A DNA stretch of 10,376 nucleotides from Promethearchaeia archaeon (GTDB lineage Archaea > Asgardarchaeota > Lokiarchaeia > Sigyniarchaeales > SOKP01): the NCBI GenBank assembly GCA_029856045.1, contig JAHQWG010000005.1, positions 1 through 10,376 on the forward strand, read 5' to 3'. Made by a program: the position numbers and the translations under genes. Every line of letters starts with the position of its first letter. The stretch's first letter is position 1. The notes below the pieces were generated by a model. The model was not told where the DNA came from and searched no databases. It was given only the letters and a program-made list of their open reading frames with translations. Of this stretch, positions 1 through 10,376 are shown one piece after another.

Positions 1-953
1 TGCTTTATAGTATTTTCCTTTATCAAACAAACTCCGGATTATTGATGTTTGATAAGAGTTTTCAAAGGATAAGTCATGGAAAAATGGAGTTATTCTCGTC
101 GTTTTTCTCGGCGATTAAAAGCTTTATTCAAGAAATGTTATTAGAGGGCTCAAAGGATTTGAAAAATATTGAGCTAGGAAATTATGTCGTAAAAATTACT
201 ACAATTCCTGGACTTAATGTCGATCTTGTTTTAATTATAGACCAAGAAGATAATAAAAAAGCTAATAAACTTATTCCTAAGATAATTAAAGTTTTACTTA
301 ATCATCAAGAAATTTTTATGGAGTGGAATGGAAATATAAATCTATTTGATATTTTGGATTATCCAGTTACCCAGTTAATTGGTTCTGAAAAATCATTAAT
401 AGATGAGAAAACTCTTACGGATAATCAAATGGAAGTTTTAAAATCAATTTGGGAGCAAAAAGGAGCACTCTCTCCCCAAAAAGTTGAGAATTTATTAAAA
501 GAAAAGCAATTTTTAGAAGATCGATTAAATCAAACCGAAAATTTATTAAGAAAACAAGAGATAATTGATAACATTTTAGAAATTTCTAATCAATTGAAGG
601 ATGATGATGGATATAGACAGTATCAGAAAATGCTCCAGCAGGTAAAAAGAGAGATCGATGATACAAAATTTAAAATTAAATATTATTTACAAAAAACAAA
701 AGAATCTTTAAGTGATTCTTTAAAAATTATAGGCCAGAAATCTCTTATTGAGGGAAATTATAAAGATACTTACTTAAATCTATATTCTTTTGGTTCAAAA
801 GTTCAAAAAATCTCTTCCGGAAATGATTATCTGAAATTTAAAGAAATGGCAAAAATGTTACTTGAAAAAGACGCGAACCGAGAATCAGAATTATCTCAGA
901 TCATAAAGGATATATTAAATTTAAAGGAAGAGGATATTGAAGATTATTTATGA
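1..953 (+). CDS. Longin-like N-terminal domain plus helical/coiled-coil C-terminal region, Asgard-type hypothetical protein (start codon probably cut by the window edge)
   Basis: The frame of ORF 42..953 is open back to the edge: (n)TG-CTT-TAT-AGT... gives (M)LYSIFLYQTNSGLLMFDKSF. This beta-hairpin start is followed by helix ELFSSFFSAIKSFIQEM, strands (LKNIEL, YVVKITT, VDLVLIID) and helices, matching the longin beta-beta-alpha-beta-beta-beta-alpha-alpha layout. The C-terminal half is K/E/Q/L-rich and coiled-coil-like. The fold call is inference. Confidence 0.6.
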   Translation, partial: LYSIFLYQTNSGLLMFDKSFQRISHGKMELFSSFFSAIKSFIQEMLLEGSKDLKNIELGNYVVKITTIPGLNVDLVLIIDQEDNKKANKLIPKIIKVLLNHQEIFMEWNGNINLFDILDYPVTQLIGSEKSLIDEKTLTDNQMEVLKSIWEQKGALSPQKVENLLKEKQFLEDRLNQTENLLRKQEIIDNILEISNQLKDDDGYRQYQKMLQQVKREIDDTKFKIKYYLQKTKESLSDSLKIIGQKSLIEGNYKDTYLNLYSFGSKVQKISSGNDYLKFKEMAKMLLEKDANRESELSQIIKDILNLKEEDIEDYL

Positions 954-2201: not shown

Positions 2202-2657
2202 TTATAATATTGATTTAAATCGATCTTCTTCTTTTAGCTTCAAATCGCCAAGGATCTCATCGAATAAAGATATAAATTTTTTGAAATATTTAGGCTTTTT
2301 TGAAAAAATATCATTTATTGAATATCTGTTGATAAATCTATTAGAAACTAAATTTAATTGTTCTTGTACACTTTCTACGGCAAGTTTTTTATCAATAATT
2401 GCATAGGAAATTAGAGGTAGGGTATCTTCAGGAGTTGCAACTCCTGGTAGTGCTAATGGAATAGAAACACAAACTAGTTTAAATGAAGCAAGTGAGATCG
2501 TATCGATATCGTCGCCCATGACTTCGTGACTAAATCCATCAAGTGCTTGGAGAAATCCTGCTCTTAAATTTGGATCAAGTTGTTCGGGGGAGCTATAATA
2601 TTGAATTTGAATTAAATTTCTATTTCCTAAATTAATTCCAGTTTCATATATCGGCAT
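2202..2657 (-). CDS. Stand-alone longin-like small protein (Asgard-type hypothetical)
   Basis: 151 aa with ATG start. The pattern MPIYETGI..NLIQIQYY (two strands), DPNLRAGFLQALDGFSHEV (helix), IDTISLASFKLVCVS and LISYAIID (strands), then two C-terminal helices fits longin topology. Co-oriented between folD and the GTPase. The fold call is inference. Confidence 0.55.
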   Translation of the reverse strand: MPIYETGINLGNRNLIQIQYYSSPEQLDPNLRAGFLQALDGFSHEVMGDDIDTISLASFKLVCVSIPLALPGVATPEDTLPLISYAIIDKKLAVESVQEQLNLVSNRFINRYSINDIFSKKPKYFKKFISLFDEILGDLKLKEEDRFKSIL

Positions 2658-2763
2658 AAGGGTCTATTTTATTGAATATTTTAAAATTATAATTAAAATA
2701 ATCAAATAATAAATAAATTATGGTGTTATAAAATATTTCCATTCTGATTCTTTTTTAACCATA

Positions 2764-3639
2764 TTATAATTTAATTAGGTTTTTATAAGCATTATAAGTA
2801 TTTTGCATAAGCATATGAGTCGTCATTGGTCCCACTCCTCCGGGAACTGGTGTTATTCTTGAAACTTTTGGAAGAATATTTTCAAAATCTGCATCACCAT
2901 ACAAATGTCCATCGACGCGCGTAATTCCCACGTCAATAATTACAACGCCTTCTTTAATTTGATCAGCCTTTATAAATTTCGGTTTTCCTACTGCAACAAT
3001 TAAAATATCGGCGTTCTTAATATATTTATTTATATCATTAGTTTTAGTATGGCAAACACTAATAGTAGCATTTCTTTTTAATAGCATAAAAATCAAAGGT
3101 TTTCCAACAAGCCTACTTCTATTGATAATTGTTACATCTTTTCCAGAGAGCTCAATATTATAATATTCCAATAACTTAATAATGCCTTTTGGAGTACAAG
3201 GACTTAAATATTCATTATAATTGAATAAATTTCCTGAATTTATAGGATTTAATCCATCAACATCTTTTTTTGGATCAATTGTAGCTAAAAATTGATTTGT
3301 ATTTTCTATCAGATTTTGTGGGAGTGGTAATTGCAATAAAATTCCATGAATGGAAGGATCAGTATTTAATCGATTTATTTCACTTAATAATTGATTTTTA
3401 TTAATATTTTTATCTAATTCTATGGATACACTTTCAATATTAACTTTGTCACATATTTTTTTCTTAATATTGATATATACTTTGGAAGCCGGATTATCTC
3501 CTACAAGGATAGTAGCTAATTTTGGTTTAATTCCAAATTTCTTGATATCTTTCTCGATCTGCTGCTTCAGTTTTTGATTTAATTCTTCTGCTAATTTTTT
3601 TCCATCTATAATTTTTTCTTTTTGCATATTGATGTTCAT
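2764..3639 (-). CDS. folD: Bifunctional 5,10-methylene-THF dehydrogenase / methenyl-THF cyclohydrolase
   Basis: Motifs IIDGKKLA, ILVGDNPASKVYINIK (YxxxK), HGILLQLPLP, KDVDGL, PCTPKGI, NRSRLVGKP, CHTKT, IIDVGI and TPVPGGVGPMT. An alternative start is Met5 (3627). Confidence 0.97.
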   Translation of the reverse strand: MNINMQKEKIIDGKKLAEELNQKLKQQIEKDIKKFGIKPKLATILVGDNPASKVYINIKKKICDKVNIESVSIELDKNINKNQLLSEINRLNTDPSIHGILLQLPLPQNLIENTNQFLATIDPKKDVDGLNPINSGNLFNYNEYLSPCTPKGIIKLLEYYNIELSGKDVTIINRSRLVGKPLIFMLLKRNATISVCHTKTNDINKYIKNADILIVAVGKPKFIKADQIKEGVVIIDVGITRVDGHLYGDADFENILPKVSRITPVPGGVGPMTTHMLMQNTYNAYKNLIKL

Positions 3640-3670
3640 TTTAAATCTCTTTAAACACTTATTGAGTCTA

Positions 3671-3686
3671 TATTTAAAATTTCTAT
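3671..3686 (-). promoter_or_regulatory. Putative archaeal BRE + TATA promoter for folD
   Basis: The minus strand reads ATAGAAAT-TTTAAATA, a purine-rich BRE-like stretch followed by a TTTAAATA box (3678-3671) about 32 nt upstream of the folD ATG. The AT-rich background weakens the signal. Confidence 0.45.
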
Positions 3687-3909
3687 TAATTCTTAAAGAA
3701 TTGGCTTAATTTAATTTACTTATTTTTTAAACTTTACAATTATGCCACTAATAAAATCAATAATATTTTATTTTTTCTCTGTTAGCAATTATGATATGGT
3801 TATAAACTTAATTCTAATAAAAATCATTAACAATTTTAAAATAATAAGTATTAAATAGAAAATCTAAATAAATTGTTGAAATTGCTAATCGAACCTAACT
3901 TAATAATGC

Positions 3910-3917
3910 TTTAAATA
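3910..3917 (+). promoter_or_regulatory. Putative archaeal TATA box for the lysine fermentation cluster
   Basis: TTTAAATA followed by TATATATC, about 85 nt upstream of the kal ATG. Other TATA-like boxes occur nearby, so the position is uncertain. Confidence 0.3.
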
Positions 3918-3987
3918 TATATATCTTTTATTTTTACTTAAATTATTATAAGTTAAACAATAAGAGAATCAAAAAAAATTAATTATT

Positions 3988-3992
3988 AGGAG
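3988..3992 (+). promoter_or_regulatory. Shine-Dalgarno site of kal
   Basis: AGGAG 7 nt upstream of ATG 4000, conspicuous in an otherwise G-poor spacer. Confidence 0.7.
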
Positions 3993-3999
3993 ATAAATA

Positions 4000-4380
4000 A
4001 TGAGTGCTTTAATAAGAGTTAGAATGAGTCTGCATGATGCTCATTATGGTGGGAATTTGGTGGATGGAGCCAAAATACTCCAACTTTTTGGGGATGTAGC
4101 TACAGAGCTTTTAATTAGAAATGACGGTGATGAAGGACTTTTCAGAGCATATGATACTATTGAATTTTTAGCCCCAGTATATGCAGGAGATTTTATTGAA
4201 GCAGAAGGAAAAATAGTTGAATCAGGAAATACATCTAGGAAAATAAAATTTAAAGCAACAAAAGTGATTACTCAAAAACCTGAGATCAGTGATTCTGCAG
4301 CTGATATTTTGGACAAACCTATAATAGTATGTAAAGCAAGTGGAACTTGTGTTGTTCCAAAAGAAAAACAAAGAAAATAG
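4000..4380 (+). CDS. kal: 3-aminobutyryl-CoA ammonia-lyase (hotdog fold)
   Basis: Signature [20 protein letters not shown]...[23 protein letters not shown]...[14 protein letters not shown]...GNTSRK...[13 protein letters not shown]. First gene of the lysine fermentation cluster. Confidence 0.93.
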
Positions 4381-4392
4381 AGAAGAAATATT

Positions 4393-5217
4393 ATGGAGAA
4401 ACTTATTATTACTACAGCAATATGTGGGGCAGAGGTTACTAAAGAACTAAATCCAAATGTTCCATATACTATTGATGAAATAGCAAAAGAAGCTGAATCT
4501 GCATATAAAGCTGGAGCAAGCATCATCCATTTACATGTGAGAGAAGATAATGGTACTCCTACTCAAAATCTAGACAGATTCAAAGTATGTATAGAAGAGA
4601 TACAAAATCGATGTCCGGATGTTATAATTCAACCTTCTACTGGGGGTGCTGTAGGTATGAGTAATAAAGAAAGACTCCAACCAATTTATCTAGAACCTCC
4701 TCCTGAAATGGCTACTCTTGACTGTGGTACTTGTAATTTTGGGGGAGATGAGATTTTTATAAATACTGAAAATACTATTATAGAATTTGCTAAAAAAATG
4801 AATGAACGGGGTATTAAGCCGGAATTAGAATGTTTTGATAAGGGCATGCTTGATATGGCATTAAAATTGCATGATAAAGGACATATCAAAGATCCGATGC
4901 ATTTTAATTTTGTATTAGGTGTTAATGGTGGTATAAAGGCAAGCGCAAGAGATTTAATTTTTTTAGTTGAAAGTATTCCTAATGATTCGACATATTCAGT
5001 ATGTGCTATAGGAAGACACGAGTTTCCAATGGTAACTTTATCAATAATAATGGGTGGTCATGCAAGAGTTGGATTTGAAGATAATATATACTTATCCAAA
5101 GGGGTTTTAGCAAAATCTAATGGAGAATTAGTCGAGAAGATTGTAAGAATCTCAAGGGAATTAGGAAGAGAAATTGCTACTCCTATAGATGCCAGGAAAA
5201 TATTGGGATTGAATTAA
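4393..5217 (+). CDS. kce: 3-keto-5-aminohexanoate cleavage enzyme (BKACE/DUF849 family)
   Basis: KLIITxAICGAE start, HLHVR Zn motif, STGG, LDCGTCNFG, PELECFD, GGHARVGFEDN and SNGELV. Genomic context with kal, kdd and kam genes. Confidence 0.95.
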   Translation: MEKLIITTAICGAEVTKELNPNVPYTIDEIAKEAESAYKAGASIIHLHVREDNGTPTQNLDRFKVCIEEIQNRCPDVIIQPSTGGAVGMSNKERLQPIYLEPPPEMATLDCGTCNFGGDEIFINTENTIIEFAKKMNERGIKPELECFDKGMLDMALKLHDKGHIKDPMHFNFVLGVNGGIKASARDLIFLVESIPNDSTYSVCAIGRHEFPMVTLSIIMGGHARVGFEDNIYLSKGVLAKSNGELVEKIVRISRELGREIATPIDARKILGLN

Positions 5218-5247
5218 ATTAATTAAATATTAAAATAAGATTGAATT

Positions 5248-5955
5248 ATGTATAGAGAAATTGCCTTATATTATGATTTGATTTATTCATGGAAAGATTA
5301 TAAGAAAGAAGCTAAAAAAGTTAAAAAATTAATTTTTAAATTTAAAAAATCAGATGGGAATGAGCTTCTTGATGTTGCTTGTGGTACTGGAAAGCACTTA
5401 GAGTATCTTAAGGATATTTTTTCTTGTATGGGTGTCGATATTAATGAAGAAATGCTGTATATTGCAAAAAAAAATGCTAGGGGAGTTAGTTTTAAAAAAG
5501 CAGACATGCTTACATTAAATCTCAAAAAGAAATTTGATGTAATTATTTGCTTATTTAGTTCAATTGGTTATGTAAAAACTTATTCAAATTTAAAAAAATG
5601 TATTCAAAATTTTGCATACCATTTAAAAAAAGGTGGTGTTGTAATATTTGAACCATGGCTTACAAAATCCACTTATATAGAAGGTTATCCACATATGGAT
5701 ACTTATGATGGTGAAGATATAAAAATCGCAAGATTAAATATTTCAAAAATTGAAGGAAATCTCTCAGTTCTGGATATGCACTACTTAATTGCGGAGAGAA
5801 ATAAAGAAATTAAATATTATAAGGATAGACATGAATTGGGTCTTTTTGAGGTGGATAGAACTTTAGTATTTATGAAAGAAGTTGGTTTACAATCAAAATT
5901 TTTGAAAAATGGGTTAATGAAAGATAGAGGACTTTATATAGGAGTTAAAGAATAG
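5248..5955 (+). CDS. Class I SAM-dependent methyltransferase, TylM1/DesVI-like N,N-dimethyltransferase family
   Basis: Motif I LLDVACGTGKH, plus YDLIY..KDY..EA, FDVIICLFSSIGY, GGVVIFEPW, HYLIA, RHELGLF and C-terminal RGLYIG. These run colinearly with TylM1/DesVI as recalled (YDL..KDY..EA, LLDVACGTG, CMFSSIG, VVVEPW, HYLVA, RGLFTG). Confidence 0.85.
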   Translation: MYREIALYYDLIYSWKDYKKEAKKVKKLIFKFKKSDGNELLDVACGTGKHLEYLKDIFSCMGVDINEEMLYIAKKNARGVSFKKADMLTLNLKKKFDVIICLFSSIGYVKTYSNLKKCIQNFAYHLKKGGVVIFEPWLTKSTYIEGYPHMDTYDGEDIKIARLNISKIEGNLSVLDMHYLIAERNKEIKYYKDRHELGLFEVDRTLVFMKEVGLQSKFLKNGLMKDRGLYIGVKE

Positions 5956-6030
5956 ATATTTTTTACTTAGGTTAGTGTATGTGAAATATTTTAATTTATT
6001 ATCTTATCTTATATTAATTTGGATGATATT

Positions 6031-7068
6031 ATGAAAAAAGGAAATAAATATGGAACACACAGAGTAGTTGAGCCGCAAGGTGTTCTTCCTCAGGCTGCAA
6101 ATAAGATATCAAATGATATGGAGCTATATGATAATGAAATTTTAATCGATGTTATTTCTCTAAATATTGATTCTGCAAGTTTTTCTCAACTTAAGGATGA
6201 AGCAGGTGGAAATGTAGAAAAAATTAAAAAAAAAATTTTGAAAATTGTAAATGATAAGGGTAAAATGCAGAACCCTGTCACTGGTTCTGGAGGAATGTTA
6301 ATTGGAAAAGTAGAGAAAATTGGAACCTCTTTAAAGGAAAAAATTAATTTGAAAGTTGGAGATAAAATTGCTACATTAGTCTCACTTACACTAACACCGC
6401 TTAGAATCGATAAAATCCTTGATATAAAACCTGATATTGACCGAGTTGATATTAATGGGAAGGCGATACTTTTTGAAAGTGGAATATACGCAAAAATTCC
6501 AGAGGATATGGAAGACACATTAGCATTAGCTATTTTTGACGTGGCAGGTGCTCCAGCTCAAACTACTAAACTTGTAAAACCGGGAGATCATGTCTTAATA
6601 CTTGGAGCAACTGGAAAATCCGGATTAATGTGCTCTTATATGGCTAAAAAAAAAGTTGGACCGCAGGGTAAAGTAATAGGACAAGCACGAAATGAAAAAC
6701 GTGCCAATTTTCTTAAAAGCACAGAATTTTGTCATGAAGTTATTATTGCGGATGTTCTTAAACCTATAGAAGTTTTAAGTGAAGCTTTAAAAGCCAATAA
6801 TGGAAAAGAAGTTGATATTTCGATTAATTGTTTAAGTATTCCTAATACAGAGATGTCTAGTATTCTTCCGGTTAAGGAAAATGGAGTGGTCTACTTCTTT
6901 TCTATGGCAACAAGCTTTACAAAGGCAGCATTAGGGGCCGAAGGTGTGGGGAAAGATGTTGTTATGATAATTGGAAATGGATATACAAAAGGTCACGCTC
7001 AAATAGCTTTAGATGAGTTAAGAGAATCTGATAAATTAAGGAAAATTTTTGAGGAAAAGTTCATTTAA
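6031..7068 (+). CDS. kdd: L-erythro-3,5-diaminohexanoate dehydrogenase
   Basis: MKKGxKYGTHRVVEPQGVLPQ, LNIDSASF, GKMQNPVTGSGGMLIG, ATLVSLTLTPL, DVAGAPAQ, GATGKSG, FFSMATSFTKAALGAEG and IGNGY. ATG 6031 (preceded by GGATGA) fits homolog N-termini better than the track's TTG 6019. Confidence 0.93.
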   Translation: MKKGNKYGTHRVVEPQGVLPQAANKISNDMELYDNEILIDVISLNIDSASFSQLKDEAGGNVEKIKKKILKIVNDKGKMQNPVTGSGGMLIGKVEKIGTSLKEKINLKVGDKIATLVSLTLTPLRIDKILDIKPDIDRVDINGKAILFESGIYAKIPEDMEDTLALAIFDVAGAPAQTTKLVKPGDHVLILGATGKSGLMCSYMAKKKVGPQGKVIGQARNEKRANFLKSTEFCHEVIIADVLKPIEVLSEALKANNGKEVDISINCLSIPNTEMSSILPVKENGVVYFFSMATSFTKAALGAEGVGKDVVMIIGNGYTKGHAQIALDELRESDKLRKIFEEKFI

Positions 7069-7109
7069 TATAAATAAGTATATAAAATGATGAAAAAAAG
7101 GCAGAACAA

Positions 7110-8354
7110 ATGAAGGTATATAGAAGATTTGAACTCTTTAAGGACGTTCCAGATGAACAATGGAATGATTGGAAATGGCAGTTTAAAAATAGAATAACAA
7201 CTTTAGATGAGCTAAAAAAATACATTCCTTTAAGTAGAGAGGAAGAGGAAGGAATAAAGAAATGTTTAGAATCTTTGAGGATGGCAGTGACTCCCTATTA
7301 TTTATCATTGATAGATATCAATGATAAAGATGATCCCGTAAGAAAACAAGCAATCCCTACAGTATTTGAATTAGAAAAGTGTGAAGATGATCTCCATGAT
7401 CCTCTTCATGAAGAAGAAGATGCACCAGTTAAGGGTTTAACTCATAGATATCCAGATAGAGTACTTTTTTTAATCACAGAGAATTGCTCAATGTATTGTA
7501 GACATTGTACAAGGAGAAGATTTGCTGGACATCATGATAAAGCTCCCCCAAAGTCGCAAATCAATAATGCAATTGAATATATTGCCAAAACTCCAGCTAT
7601 AAGGGACGTTTTATTGTCTGGAGGAGATGCTTTGTTAGTTTCTAATAAAGAATTGGAGTATATAATAAAAAAGTTAAAAGAGATACCCCATGTTGAAATT
7701 ATTCGTATAGGTTCAAGAGCTCCCGTTGTAATGCCCCAAAGGATTAATCAAGAATTAGTTGATATGCTTAAAAAATACCATCCGATTTGGTTTAATACTC
7801 ACTTTAATCATCCAAATGAGATTACTGAGGAGTCTAAAAGAGCTTGTGAAATGATTGCTGATGCGGGAATACCTCTCGGGAATCAATCAGTATTATTAAG
7901 AGGAGTAAATGACTGTATTCATGTAATGAAAAAACTAGTCCATGAACTGGTAAAAATAAGAGTTAGACCATATTATCTTTACCAATGTGATTTATCTATG
8001 GGACTTAAGCATTTTAGAACAAGTATCGCTCAAGGTATTGAAATTATCGAGGGTCTAAGGGGTCATACTTCCGGTTTATGTGTGCCTACATTTGTAGTTG
8101 ATGCACCAGGTGGTGGTGGGAAAATACCTGTTATGCCAAATTATGTTATTTCACAGGGAAATACTCGAGTTGTATTAAGAAATTTTGAAGGAGTTATTAC
8201 AACTTATGCAGAACCATCAGATTATCAAGCAACATGTAATTGTGAAGATCGAGAAAAACTAATTGGAGTTGCGGGATTATTAAGTGGACAAAAGGTTACG
8301 ATAGAACCAGAAGATCTAGAACGTAATATAAGGAAAAGGAGTTTAAGTAAATAA
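7110..8354 (+). CDS. kamA: L-lysine 2,3-aminomutase (radical SAM, PLP)
   Basis: WNDWKWQ, GLTHRYPDRVL, CxxxCxxC motif (CSMYCRHCTRRR), LLSGGD, HFNHP, NQSVLLRGVND, PYYLYQCD, GHTSG and DAPGGGGK (PLP lysine). Confidence 0.97.
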   Translation: MKVYRRFELFKDVPDEQWNDWKWQFKNRITTLDELKKYIPLSREEEEGIKKCLESLRMAVTPYYLSLIDINDKDDPVRKQAIPTVFELEKCEDDLHDPLHEEEDAPVKGLTHRYPDRVLFLITENCSMYCRHCTRRRFAGHHDKAPPKSQINNAIEYIAKTPAIRDVLLSGGDALLVSNKELEYIIKKLKEIPHVEIIRIGSRAPVVMPQRINQELVDMLKKYHPIWFNTHFNHPNEITEESKRACEMIADAGIPLGNQSVLLRGVNDCIHVMKKLVHELVKIRVRPYYLYQCDLSMGLKHFRTSIAQGIEIIEGLRGHTSGLCVPTFVVDAPGGGGKIPVMPNYVISQGNTRVVLRNFEGVITTYAEPSDYQATCNCEDREKLIGVAGLLSGQKVTIEPEDLERNIRKRSLSK

Positions 8355-8417: not shown

Positions 8418-9443
8418 ATGCAACTTCTTGATATGATTAAAGAATATAAAATTATATCAATTATTGGATTGGGTAAAAATACAGGAAAAACGACAACCCT
8501 TAACCATCTGATAAAAAATTTAACCTTAATGGGAAAAAAGTTATCTCTTACTTCAATAGGGAGAGATGGAGAAAAGTATGATGTTATTACTCGTTTACCA
8601 AAACCACGAATTTATATTGAGAAAGGAACTTATGTAGCAACAGCAGAAAAGAGTCTCGATAATAGTAATATTAAGATAGAACTTATTAAAACTACAGGAT
8701 TTAACACGCCATTAGGAGTAGTTAAAATATTAAAGGCAATGAGCAGTGGCTATATTGAACTAGCAGGTCCATCGATAAATAAATATCTATCTAATATCTG
8801 TTTAGAATTAATCAATTTAGGATGTGATATTATTTTAGTGGATGGTGCATTTGATAGAAGATCATATGCGGCTCCTTTAATATCTGATGCTACAATTCTT
8901 TCAACGGGGGCATCTATTTCAGAAAATATGCATAAAGTTGTTGATTTAACCGCTCATACAGTTAAATTATTAACCATAGAAAATGAAAAAGAAGAAGAAA
9001 TACTCAAATTGGCTAATGAAATTTTTAAAAACTCAAAAATTGGGATTATTGATTCAAAAAATTCTATAAAAATGTTAGATATAATAACATCATTGGACGC
9101 AGCTACAGAGATAAATGAAAATTTAAATAGTAACTCAAAATACGTTGTAATAAAAGGACCAATTTCTGATAAATTATTAAGCGATTTAATGGATTCTACT
9201 GATAAATATAAAGGAGTTACATTTTTGGTAGAGGATGGTACAAAATTATTTTTAAGTAAAGGTATAATGGAAAAATTCCAAAAGAAAGGCGGTATTTTAA
9301 AAGTATTAAACCCAATAAAATTAATTGCTGTAACTGCAAATCCAACTTCTCCATTTGAATATGAGTTTGATAAAAATGAATTTCTAAAATTATTAAAAGA
9401 AAATATTAATATCCCTATTTATGATCTTGGATCTAATGATTAA
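8418..9443 (+). CDS. kamB: KamB-like P-loop protein, putative subunit of the lysine 5,6-aminomutase reactivating factor
   Basis: N-terminal SIIGLGKNTGKTT P-loop, TSIGRDGE..D......KPRI, TPLG, IELAGP, LVDGAFDRRS.A.P..SDA.ILSTGA, DGTKLF and NPTSP. About 340 aa and immediately after kamA, as in bacterial lysine clusters. Confidence 0.78.
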   Translation: MQLLDMIKEYKIISIIGLGKNTGKTTTLNHLIKNLTLMGKKLSLTSIGRDGEKYDVITRLPKPRIYIEKGTYVATAEKSLDNSNIKIELIKTTGFNTPLGVVKILKAMSSGYIELAGPSINKYLSNICLELINLGCDIILVDGAFDRRSYAAPLISDATILSTGASISENMHKVVDLTAHTVKLLTIENEKEEEILKLANEIFKNSKIGIIDSKNSIKMLDIITSLDAATEINENLNSNSKYVVIKGPISDKLLSDLMDSTDKYKGVTFLVEDGTKLFLSKGIMEKFQKKGGILKVLNPIKLIAVTANPTSPFEYEFDKNEFLKLLKENINIPIYDLGSND

Positions 9444-9552
9444 CTAAAACCGTTTTGATTAAAAAATGAAAAGATTGGGGGTTTTAGACGTAAATAAAAA
9501 ATTGTAAATATAATCAAAAATATAAAAAAATATCATATTTAAAGTGAAAAAA

Positions 9553-10376
9553 TTGAATGATAAAGCAGTAAATAGCAAATTGAATTTAGATTTCTCAATA
9601 GTAAAAAAGGCAAGAGAGGCAGCAAAAAAAATTGCTTTAGACACCCAAAAATTCATAGATAAACACACTACAACGTCAATTGAAAGAACTGTCTGTAGAT
9701 TACTTGGTATAGATGGGTTAAATGAATTTGGTGTTCCTTTACCGAATTTAGTTGTGGATAATATTAATAAAGCCAAGAAGCTTGGAAAAGGTGTTGCTAT
9801 CTTTATTGGAAATGCAATTCTCCATACAAAATTATCCCCTCAAGAGATTGCTGAAAAAATATCGAAAGATGAACTTGATTTAACAAAACTTCCTATGAAT
9901 GATTTATCTGAAATAAAGGAGAATATCACCAAATTTACTAAACTAACTATTAAAAAAATTATAAATAATAAAGAAAAGAGAGAAGCTTATCTTGAAAAAT
10001 TTGGCGATAAGGAAGGTCCTCTTCTCTATATAATTGTCGCAACGGGAAATATTTATGAAGATATCACTCAAGCAAAAGCTGCCGCAAAACAAGGAGCAGA
10101 TATCATTGCGGTTATAAGATCTACTGGACAGAGTCTTCTTGATTATGTGCCTTATGGTGCAACAACAGAAGGATTTGGTGGTACTTATGCAACCCAAGAA
10201 AATTTTAGGCTTATGAGAAAAGCTTTAGATGAAGTTGGAGAAGAATTGGGAAGATATATAAGATTAACTAATTATTGTTCTGGACTTTGCATGCCTGAAA
10301 TAGCCGCTATGGGAGCATTTGAGAGACTTGATGTGATGCTTAATGATGCTCTTTATGGAATATTATTTAGAGATAT
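9553..10376 (+). CDS. kamD: Beta-lysine/D-lysine 5,6-aminomutase alpha subunit (partial, runs off the window; not in ORF track)
   Basis: Frame 1 has no stop from 9544 to the end. It reads NSKLNLDFSIVKKAREAAKKIALDTQKFIDKHTTTSIERTVCRLLGIDG...PLLYIIVATGNIYEDITQAKAAAKQGADIIAVIRSTGQSLLDYVPYGATTEGFGGTYATQENFRLMRKALDEVG...NYCSGLCMPEIAAMGAFERLDVMLNDALYGILFRD, closely matching clostridial KamD. The start is TTG 9553 or GTG 9544; no in-frame ATG precedes the conserved N-terminus. Confidence 0.95.
   Translation, partial: MNDKAVNSKLNLDFSIVKKAREAAKKIALDTQKFIDKHTTTSIERTVCRLLGIDGLNEFGVPLPNLVVDNINKAKKLGKGVAIFIGNAILHTKLSPQEIAEKISKDELDLTKLPMNDLSEIKENITKFTKLTIKKIINNKEKREAYLEKFGDKEGPLLYIIVATGNIYEDITQAKAAAKQGADIIAVIRSTGQSLLDYVPYGATTEGFGGTYATQENFRLMRKALDEVGEELGRYIRLTNYCSGLCMPEIAAMGAFERLDVMLNDALYGILFRD

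Follow-up and report, generated by a model that had tools for sequence, protein, structure and literature searches.

The methyltransferase gene in the lysine-fermentation cluster

The window, as the whole stretch of DNA analyzed here is called, is a complete contig of 10,376 bp from a genome with a G+C content of about 29%. It carries a run of genes for lysine fermentation and, between kce and kdd, a gene for a methyltransferase (MT; Table 1). Each pathway gene that is complete in the window scores above the equivalog cut-off of its NCBIfam model. The kdd open reading frame (ORF) opens at a TTG codon, and its likely start is the in-frame ATG at position 6031. The other genes of the window encode FolD, a DRG/TGS GTPase and two ORFs that have no family match. 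The initial annotation had described an intact methyltransferase of 235 residues, 30 bp downstream of kce and 75 bp upstream of kdd, in a window devoid of sugar-nucleotide genes. The ORF and both spacers were found as described, and Pfam and NCBIfam annotation detects no sugar-nucleotide gene anywhere in the 10,376 bp.

Table 1. Lysine-fermentation genes, the methyltransferase gene and its flanking spacers in the window
Feature	Description	Positions	Strand	Basis
kal	3-aminobutyryl-CoA ammonia lyase	4000-4380	+	NF052388, 197 bits (cut-off 160)
kce	3-keto-5-aminohexanoate cleavage enzyme	4393-5217	+	NF052387, 446 bits (cut-off 382); Pfam BKACE, E = 2e-107
kce-MT spacer	30 bp	5218-5247	+	read from the sequence
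MT	class I SAM-dependent methyltransferase of the TylM1/DesVI kind, 235 aa, ATG start	5248-5955	+	structure matches and model
MT-kdd spacer	75 bp, AT-rich, run of six T just past the MT stop codon	5956-6030	+	read from the sequence
kdd	L-erythro-3,5-diaminohexanoate dehydrogenase (ORF from TTG)	6019-7068	+	NF052381, 275 bits (cut-off 200)
kamA	lysine 2,3-aminomutase	7110-8354	+	TIGR03820, 625 bits (cut-off 525)
kamB	lysine 5,6-aminomutase reactivase subunit	8418-9443	+	NF052386, 400 bits (cut-off 210)
kamD	lysine 5,6-aminomutase alpha subunit, cut by the contig end	9544-10374	+	NF052384, E = 5e-135, model positions 1-266 of 511

Family and fold of the methyltransferase

General domain libraries say little about MT. 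The Pfam domains recognized in it are all generic ones of class I methyltransferases, none of the NCBIfam models attains its cut-off, and a search of the ESM Atlas returned generic methyltransferase clusters only. The sequences of solved structures gave a full-length match to DesVI (PDB 3bxo; MT residues 6-233, E = 9.6e-41), and matches to TylM1 (3pfg; E = 3.9e-35), KedS8 (E = 3.9e-33) and CalS10 (E = 3.1e-24). An AlphaFold model calculated from an alignment of 22 homologs has a pLDDT of 87 and a pTM of 0.86. It consists of a Rossmann core and a four-stranded antiparallel β cap, as in the TylM1/DesVI class of proteins of about 235-260 residues, and can be superimposed onto TylM1 (4oqd) with a TM-score of 0.93 and an rmsd of 1.6 Å at 31% sequence identity. 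The superposition of the model on 4oqd, 3pfg and 3bxo extends over about 235 columns, with identities to the characterized enzymes of 31-34%. By fold and family MT is a class I SAM methyltransferase of the TylM1/DesVI type, and the original family assignment is thus confirmed by both the full-length matches and the model.

The nearest solved structures - TylM1, DesVI, KedS8 and CalS10 - are all dTDP-amino-sugar N-methyltransferases. They favor a reading in which MT is a canonical NDP-3-amino-sugar N,N-dimethyltransferase that serves surface-glycan synthesis and has its partner genes elsewhere in the genome. The identity to these enzymes is, however, limited to 31-34%, and the genomic evidence given below makes this reading distinctly unlikely.

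A macromolecular substrate was also considered. EftM, the lysine methyltransferase of EF-Tu, is distantly related to DesVI and has been modeled on it. With EftM and the modification enzymes encoded next to mcr genes as models, MT could act as a protein methyltransferase with Kce, Kal or some other protein as its target, and its gene does adjoin genes of possible target proteins. EftM, however, shares only about 19% identity with DesVI, and its substrate channel is enlarged. MT aligns with the sugar enzymes from end to end at 31-34% identity and shares their cap. Furthermore, Kce would not be available as a target in the genomes that carry MT homologs away from kce, as none of the five searched has a Kce above the cut-off. 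Protein methylation is accordingly the reading to which we give the least credence, and it is extremely unlikely.

Conserved residues

Equivalences between TylM1 and MT were taken from the sequence alignment, and the TylM1 numbering was checked against the names of mutants in the PDB (Y14F, S120A, H123A/N). TylM1 residues Phe118, Ser120, Trp152 and Arg177 correspond to Phe103, Ser105, Trp137 and Arg162 of MT, and the arginine of the TylM1 SGRGLF motif corresponds to Arg227. All five MT residues are at least 90% conserved in the subfamily. The counterpart of TylM1 His123 is Tyr108, a position that is also tyrosine in DesVI and falls below 90% conservation, and that of Ser181 is Ser166, which is not among the 53 conserved residues described below. 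TylM1 Tyr14 probably corresponds to Tyr2, which is at least 90% conserved; to pair the two, the alignment has to be shifted by one residue immediately beyond the aligned block. In the SAM site, the LDVACGTG motif, Tyr2 and Ser105 of MT align with the glycine-rich motif, Tyr14 and Ser120 of TylM1, again with at least 90% conservation. Overall, the SAM motif, the FSS(I/V)G loop, the EPW motif and two arginines have been kept between MT and TylM1/DesVI.

These two arginines, Arg162 of the ARLN motif and Arg227 of the DRGLY motif, had been singled out in the initial annotation as retained. They do align with TylM1 arginines and are at least 90% conserved in 79 homologs. We take Arg177, Ser181 and the C-terminal arginine of TylM1 to be ligands of the dTDP-sugar, with the arginines binding its diphosphate. 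Conservation of the MT residues that align with these presumed ligands speaks for the sugar reading. More generally, the pair of arginines suggests that the substrate has an anionic handle close to its amine, and by homology the most likely reaction of MT is the N-methylation of a primary amine of a small substrate with such a phosphate-like handle.

The MTs encoded next to kce (38 sequences) and those encoded elsewhere (41 sequences) have 53 residues in common, each at least 90% conserved in both groups. The sole group-specific differences are D/E42 and Asn164, the latter being invariant in the kce-linked MTs only. The possibility that the linked clade has become neofunctionalized was rejected, as there are no other group-specific conserved substitutions. 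Nothing in the alignment points to a changed substrate pocket in the kce-linked MTs.

Recurrence of the arrangement

Among 40 relatives of the window genome, MT was found in six other genomes belonging to five genera. It lies directly after kce in all six and is directly followed by kdd in five. A profile of 22 MT sequences was then used to search species-representative genomes, and the best 80 loci were analyzed. Kce is encoded upstream of MT in 37 of these 80 loci, and Kdd directly downstream in 22. The kce-MT spacer is 10-34 bp long in 36 of the 37 loci (median 30 bp) and 1.5 kb in the remaining one; none of the 36 short spacers contains five or more consecutive T. In the 22 loci with Kdd downstream, the median length of the MT-kdd spacer is 27 bp, and a T run of at least five occurs in only four of them, so the 75-bp spacer of the window is specific to its lineage. 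MT is on the strand of the pathway genes, with spacers of about 30 bp (36 loci) and 27 bp (22 loci) on its two sides, and it is probably transcribed together with the lysine-fermentation genes.

The extent of the arrangement was defined in a sample of 400 genomes of the phylum, in which Kce was counted at E ≤ 1e-90 and MT at an identity of at least 54%. Kce is present only in the GTDB family of the window genome (f1; 74 of 135 genomes) and in its sister family (f2; nine of 14). MT was found in 51 of the 135 genomes of the window's family and in none of the sister family, and it lies beside or near kce in 50 of the 51. One genome that seems to break the pairing (G202) has a contig that ends inside kce. 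The names Hermodarchaeota and Hodarchaeota attached to some loci are the submitters' NCBI names. The kce-MT arrangement is a feature of one GTDB family and occurs in about 50 species-level genomes.

Several variations on the arrangement were observed. Lysine-fermentation clusters of the Kal variant and of the Kat variant alike retain MT. In some loci kdd is displaced by a his operon, an amine-oxidase-like gene or a flavodoxin gene, while MT stays with kal or kat and kce. These loci belong essentially to one clade of the MT tree and so represent few independent events. Insertions between kce and MT occur at one of the analyzed loci (L087) and in two further genomes (G258 and G275).

The full-text literature searched holds no description of a methyltransferase in a kce-kdd cluster, nor of the cluster itself in Asgard archaea. 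The kce-MT-kdd arrangement is thus real and recurrent, and is not described in the literature searched.

The recurrence counts in favor of a reading in which MT acts on the pathway. According to this reading MT methylates the 3-amino group of β-lysine, of 3,5-diaminohexanoate or of the Kce product, 3-aminobutyryl-CoA, and yields either a methylated β-amino-acid solute or an improved leaving group, and the conserved arginines serve to bind a carboxylate or the diphosphate of CoA. In about 50 species MT strictly keeps its place between kce and kdd, with spacers of 10-34 bp, MT is inherited together with its flanking genes under purifying selection, it is nearly absent from members of the family that lack Kce, and it persists in both cluster variants. 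The spacing of amine and anion in β-amino acids may, in addition, loosely resemble that in a 3-amino-sugar-1-phosphate. On the other side, a branch towards a solute would be expected beside kamA, whereas MT is placed among the genes for the final steps, and the idea that 3-aminobutyryl-CoA could act as an analogue of a dTDP-sugar for MT has no support from the present analyses. Taken with the distribution of MT described below, pathway-coupled methylation is unlikely. We are similarly doubtful of the variant in which the recruited MT gives Asgard archaea an undescribed methylated β-amino-acid product or a methylamine-releasing pathway.

Evolutionary history

A maximum-likelihood tree was calculated for 81 MTs. 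The kce-linked MTs form three well supported subclades and, together with the MTs of two further loci (L082 and L095), occupy one side of a branch in the best tree, although the support for this branch is weak (57). For pairwise protein distances the correlation coefficient r is 0.70 between MT and Kce and 0.71 between MT and Kdd, at least as high as the 0.49 between Kce and Kdd themselves. MT evolves about 1.4-1.6 times faster than its neighbors. The dN/dS ratios are 0.09-0.25 for MT and 0.06-0.14 for Kce. MT is therefore under purifying selection and is co-inherited with Kce and Kdd. Two other histories were considered and discarded: MT as a decaying passenger, in view of its dN/dS ratios and of its being intact at all loci, and repeated insertion at a single site, in view of the linked MTs being one group whose distances track those of Kce and Kdd.

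MT has also been lost without trace. In a genome of the same genus as the window genome (G001), the Kce of which is 93% identical, kce is followed by a 21-bp spacer and then by kdd, with no remnant of MT. Two other genomes (G017 and G018) resemble it at this position. In the simplest history, MT was inserted once in an ancestor of the family, then descended vertically with the operon and was cleanly lost more than once.

The pathway without the methyltransferase and the methyltransferase without the pathway

Kce occurs without MT in 34 genomes, namely 25 of the 74 Kce-bearing genomes of the window's family and all nine of the sister family. Conversely, MT is present in one of the 61 genomes of the window's family that lack Kce. 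Searches of this genome (G220, 94% complete) gave no Kce above the cut-off and no Kdd. Its MT, at locus L095, nests within the linked clade and lies between a RelA/SpoT-TPR-SLOG gene and a 2-hydroxyacid dehydrogenase gene, with a TIR gene also adjoining. It is the one instance, among the 51 MT-bearing genomes of the family, of an MT away from kce.

Outside the family MT is widespread. In another Asgard family (f18), MT with 48-57% identity is present in eight of 12 genomes, none of which has Kce. Of the nine loci examined, three are annotated, and in these MT adjoins ATP-citrate lyase-like genes; in the two of them whose orientation can be read, the strands are opposite. The surroundings of MT in this family and in one more (f31) give no hint of function. 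Homologs with 51-75% identity are found in Bathyarchaeia, Methanosarcinales, Methanofastidiosia, DPANN archaea and CPR bacteria, as well as in Proteobacteria, Zixibacteria, Planctomycetota and Acidobacteria. When the neighbors of 43 unlinked MT loci were clustered into families, none was shared between loci, and a Pfam tally of 150 neighbors contained neither lysine nor sugar genes. Kce is above the cut-off in none of five non-Asgard genomes with an unlinked MT, and a KamA-family gene was found in two of ten genomes with an unlinked MT. The latter result led us to reject β-lysine as the substrate of the whole subfamily.

The initial proposal of a methylated β-amino-acid branch can now be divided into two parts. 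The synteny on which it was built does recur, as shown by the roughly 50 genomes of a single Asgard family, and is not peculiar to the window genome. The role in the pathway is not supported, for the pathway occurs without MT and MT without Kce. The initial annotation had counted orthologs in unrelated contexts among the signs against its proposal, and such orthologs do exist: homologs with 51-75% identity have no conserved neighbor and reside in genomes without Kce (none of five) and mostly without KamA (two of ten). MT is not present wherever lysine fermentation is, nor absent wherever the pathway is absent. It is dispensable for the pathway and exists without it. The distribution thus counts against pathway-coupled methylation on three points: the 34 related genomes that have the pathway and no MT, the genome that retains MT and in which neither Kce nor Kdd was found, and the distant homologs, which share the same 53 residues in genomes where Kce (0/5) and KamA-family genes (2/10) are absent or infrequent. 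A methylated β-amino-acid branch is less likely than a self-contained enzyme within the operon.

The same genomes bear on the sugar reading. DegT-type sugar aminotransferases occur in the window genome and in all 40 relatives searched; being found in all of them, they do not discriminate. Against the reading, neither the window nor any of the 37 linked and 43 unlinked loci has a sugar-nucleotide or glycosyltransferase gene next to MT. A strong match to an FdtA-type 3,4-ketoisomerase exists in one of seven MT-bearing relatives, and the window genome has only a cupin match of 30 bits. DegT was found in six of ten genomes with an unlinked MT; the four in which it was not found include a 1.5-Mb bathyarchaeal record labeled 'chromosome'. 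With these counts, the NDP-amino-sugar alternative is poorly supported too.

The scatter of MT across distant phyla at 51-75% identity, its patchy distribution and the lack of a conserved context could also be signs of a stand-alone detoxification or resistance enzyme. The amine on which such an enzyme acts would come from outside or be a stray one; amino-sugar antibiotics and aberrant nucleotide-like metabolites are examples. The gene would have spread horizontally and landed in the operon by chance. The commonest neighbors of unlinked MTs are of a kind that fits this reading: GNAT (4 of 150), NUDIX (3), HD/YfbR-like (2), APH (2) and nucleotidyltransferase (2) genes; the TIR and RelA/SpoT-like genes at locus L095 fit it as well. 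The counts are small, however, at most four in 150, and are raw numbers, uncorrected for background frequencies. Moreover, the vertical co-inheritance within the family is unlike the behavior of a mobile resistance gene, and we know of no resistance that is based on N-methylation of such amines. We regard this reading as very unlikely.

Function of the methyltransferase

The explanation that we prefer, and to which we give about an even chance of being correct, is that MT is a functional, self-contained N-methyltransferase of the TylM1/DesVI kind that has become a fixed passenger in the operon of one Lokiarchaeial family. The inserted gene would have come from the stand-alone, widely transferred MT subfamily. 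It would have entered between kce and kdd once, in the ancestor of this family of Promethearchaeota, and would since have been inherited and transcribed with the operon and cleanly lost in about a third of the lineages. The reaction catalyzed would be that of the unlinked homologs in other phyla. Since the reaction is probably the same as theirs, MT is probably not a step or a branch of lysine fermentation. A passenger is also likelier than a new step of the pathway because near-identical enzymes occur in organisms that lack the pathway.

Several observations run counter to this explanation. Asn164 is invariant in the linked MTs only, and the NDP-amino sugars, as the other class of substrate, are poorly supported themselves. 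The retention of MT in both cluster variants, and its staying with kce at loci where kdd is displaced, argue for a functional link. It is unusual for an unrelated gene to be kept throughout a family in a catabolic operon under purifying selection. Furthermore, within the family MT is rarely found off kce (1/51) or without Kce (1/61), so that its value to the cell could depend on the pathway. The association between MT and Kce is nevertheless weaker than the raw counts suggest, because the genomes are related to each other and because deletion of the operon removes MT as well, which leaves few independent events.

Lysine fermentation is one route of amino-acid catabolism in syntrophic Asgard archaea, which are close to the origin of eukaryotes. 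A gene that is present in the operon of about 50 species under purifying selection and that has no described role is a concrete and cheap target for biochemistry. If MT were to act on an amine of the pathway, a methylation branch would be added to a pathway that is thought to be fully described. If it does not, the operon is a clear example of an unrelated gene riding stably among others and a caution against deriving function from synteny alone.

Comparison with known systems

Glycine and sarcosine N-methyltransferases, the enzymes of betaine synthesis, likewise combine the class I core with a cap, and the substrate of their N-methylation is a small amino acid. Their similarity to MT is weak and limited to the core (47 bits against an NCBIfam cut-off of 350; E = 1e-6 to 5gwx; TM-score of about 0.7).

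A precedent is offered by AblA and AblB of methanogens, which synthesize N-epsilon-acetyl-β-lysine. In that system the enzyme that modifies an amine of β-lysine, the GNAT acetyltransferase AblB, is encoded adjacent to ablA, the gene of a KamA homolog. In contrast, the additional gene described here encodes a methyltransferase, lies beside kce, and has homologs in genomes where no KamA-family gene was detected.

TylM1 of Streptomyces fradiae and DesVI of S. venezuelae are N,N-dimethyltransferases of dTDP-3-amino-3,6-dideoxyhexoses. These two enzymes, KedS8 and CalS10 match MT over its full length and have the same fold and cap. Unlike TylM1 and DesVI, MT is located outside any sugar or antibiotic cluster and belongs to a subfamily that is spread over many phyla without conserved neighbors.

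The described lysine-fermentation pathway has, to our knowledge, no methylation step. The genes that flank MT are those of the lysine cluster and lie on one strand in the order kal-kce-(MT)-kdd-kamA-kamB-kamD. Compared with the canonical cluster of Fusobacterium and Clostridia (kamA, kamDE, kdd, kce and kal) and with the Kat variant of Cloacimonas, the window has an additional methyltransferase gene between kce and kdd.

Organization of the window and of a genome of the same genus

The spacer between the methyltransferase gene and kdd is AT-rich and measures 75 bp in the window; its median length across relatives is 27 bp. A run of six T's lies immediately 3' of the methyltransferase stop codon, and the spacer (positions 5956-6030) could be a lineage-specific putative terminator combined with a putative internal promoter. 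Two window ORFs without a family match (Table) are conserved, with 89-92% identity, in G004, a genome of the same genus that also carries the methyltransferase. Region 565000-597000 of G004 contig C10, at a distance of 30-55 kb from the lysine cluster of that genome, encodes several DegT aminotransferases together with two strong FdtA-type ketoisomerases. In the window's genome, G000, the search for a strong FdtA counterpart produced a 30-bit match only. G000 also encodes a second paralog of the BKACE family, to which Kce belongs.

Coordinates of genes in the window, elsewhere in G000 and at other methyltransferase (MT) loci
Feature	Position	Strand	Remarks
316-aa ORF	window 3-953	+	no Pfam or NCBIfam family match
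151-aa ORF	window 2202-2657	-	no Pfam or NCBIfam family match
Second BKACE-family paralog	G000:C46:9201-10040 (L035)		42% identical to Kce, under the Kce cut-off
Class-III aminotransferase	L072:5806-7092		upstream of kce, replacing kal
Class-III aminotransferase	L087:4398-5639		upstream of kce, replacing kal
235-aa ORF	L087:6771-7475		between kce and MT; no Pfam match
99-aa ORF	L087:7623-7919		between kce and MT; no Pfam match
~517-aa flavin amine oxidase-like protein	L078:8766-10316	same as MT	directly after MT
~517-aa flavin amine oxidase-like protein	L065:8774-10333	same as MT	directly after MT
~517-aa flavin amine oxidase-like protein	L068:8819-10372	same as MT	directly after MT
TIR-domain protein and RelA/SpoT-TPR-SLOG protein	L095 (G220): 2741-7932 and 8739-9743		neighbours of relocated MT

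Methyltransferase loci in other genomes

Additional genes accompany the methyltransferase at several linked loci. The amine oxidase-like protein of the L078/L065/L068 subclade matches Pfam Amino_oxidase (E 7e-9, from the L078 copy only), and its gene in L078 is situated between the methyltransferase gene and kdd. An amine oxidase beside an N-methyltransferase might hint at a common amine chemistry in this subclade.

The methyltransferase is also found away from kce. Its surroundings in L095 look like a defence island, and searches of G220, the genome that carries this relocated copy, recovered no Kce and no Kdd. At 75% identity, the methyltransferase of L039, titled Methanofastidiosia, is closer to the window's enzyme than any other non-linked copy. 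Two loci with bacterial labels probably represent mis-binned Asgard contigs: L083, titled Nanopelagicaceae, has an Asgard-type kal-kce-methyltransferase arrangement, and the methyltransferase of L082, titled Stahlbacteria, falls within the Asgard clade.

Possible mosaic history and cluster variants

Six kce-methyltransferase-kdd loci (L045, L051, L053, L059, L050 and L076) were compared in close pairs for synonymous divergence. In several close pairs the dS of Kce is 1.1-2.0, whereas that of the neighbouring methyltransferase is 0.17-0.44; Kdd is likewise low (0.23-0.39) in two of three pairs. This disparity suggests that the kal/kat-kce module upstream of the methyltransferase gene has been exchanged by recombination, resulting in a mosaic operon. 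The methyltransferase is present in both the Kal and the Kat variants of the cluster. As in L072 and L087, other loci that lack kal have a class-III aminotransferase gene in its position upstream of kce, and this replacement is the Kat variant of the lysine-fermentation pathway.
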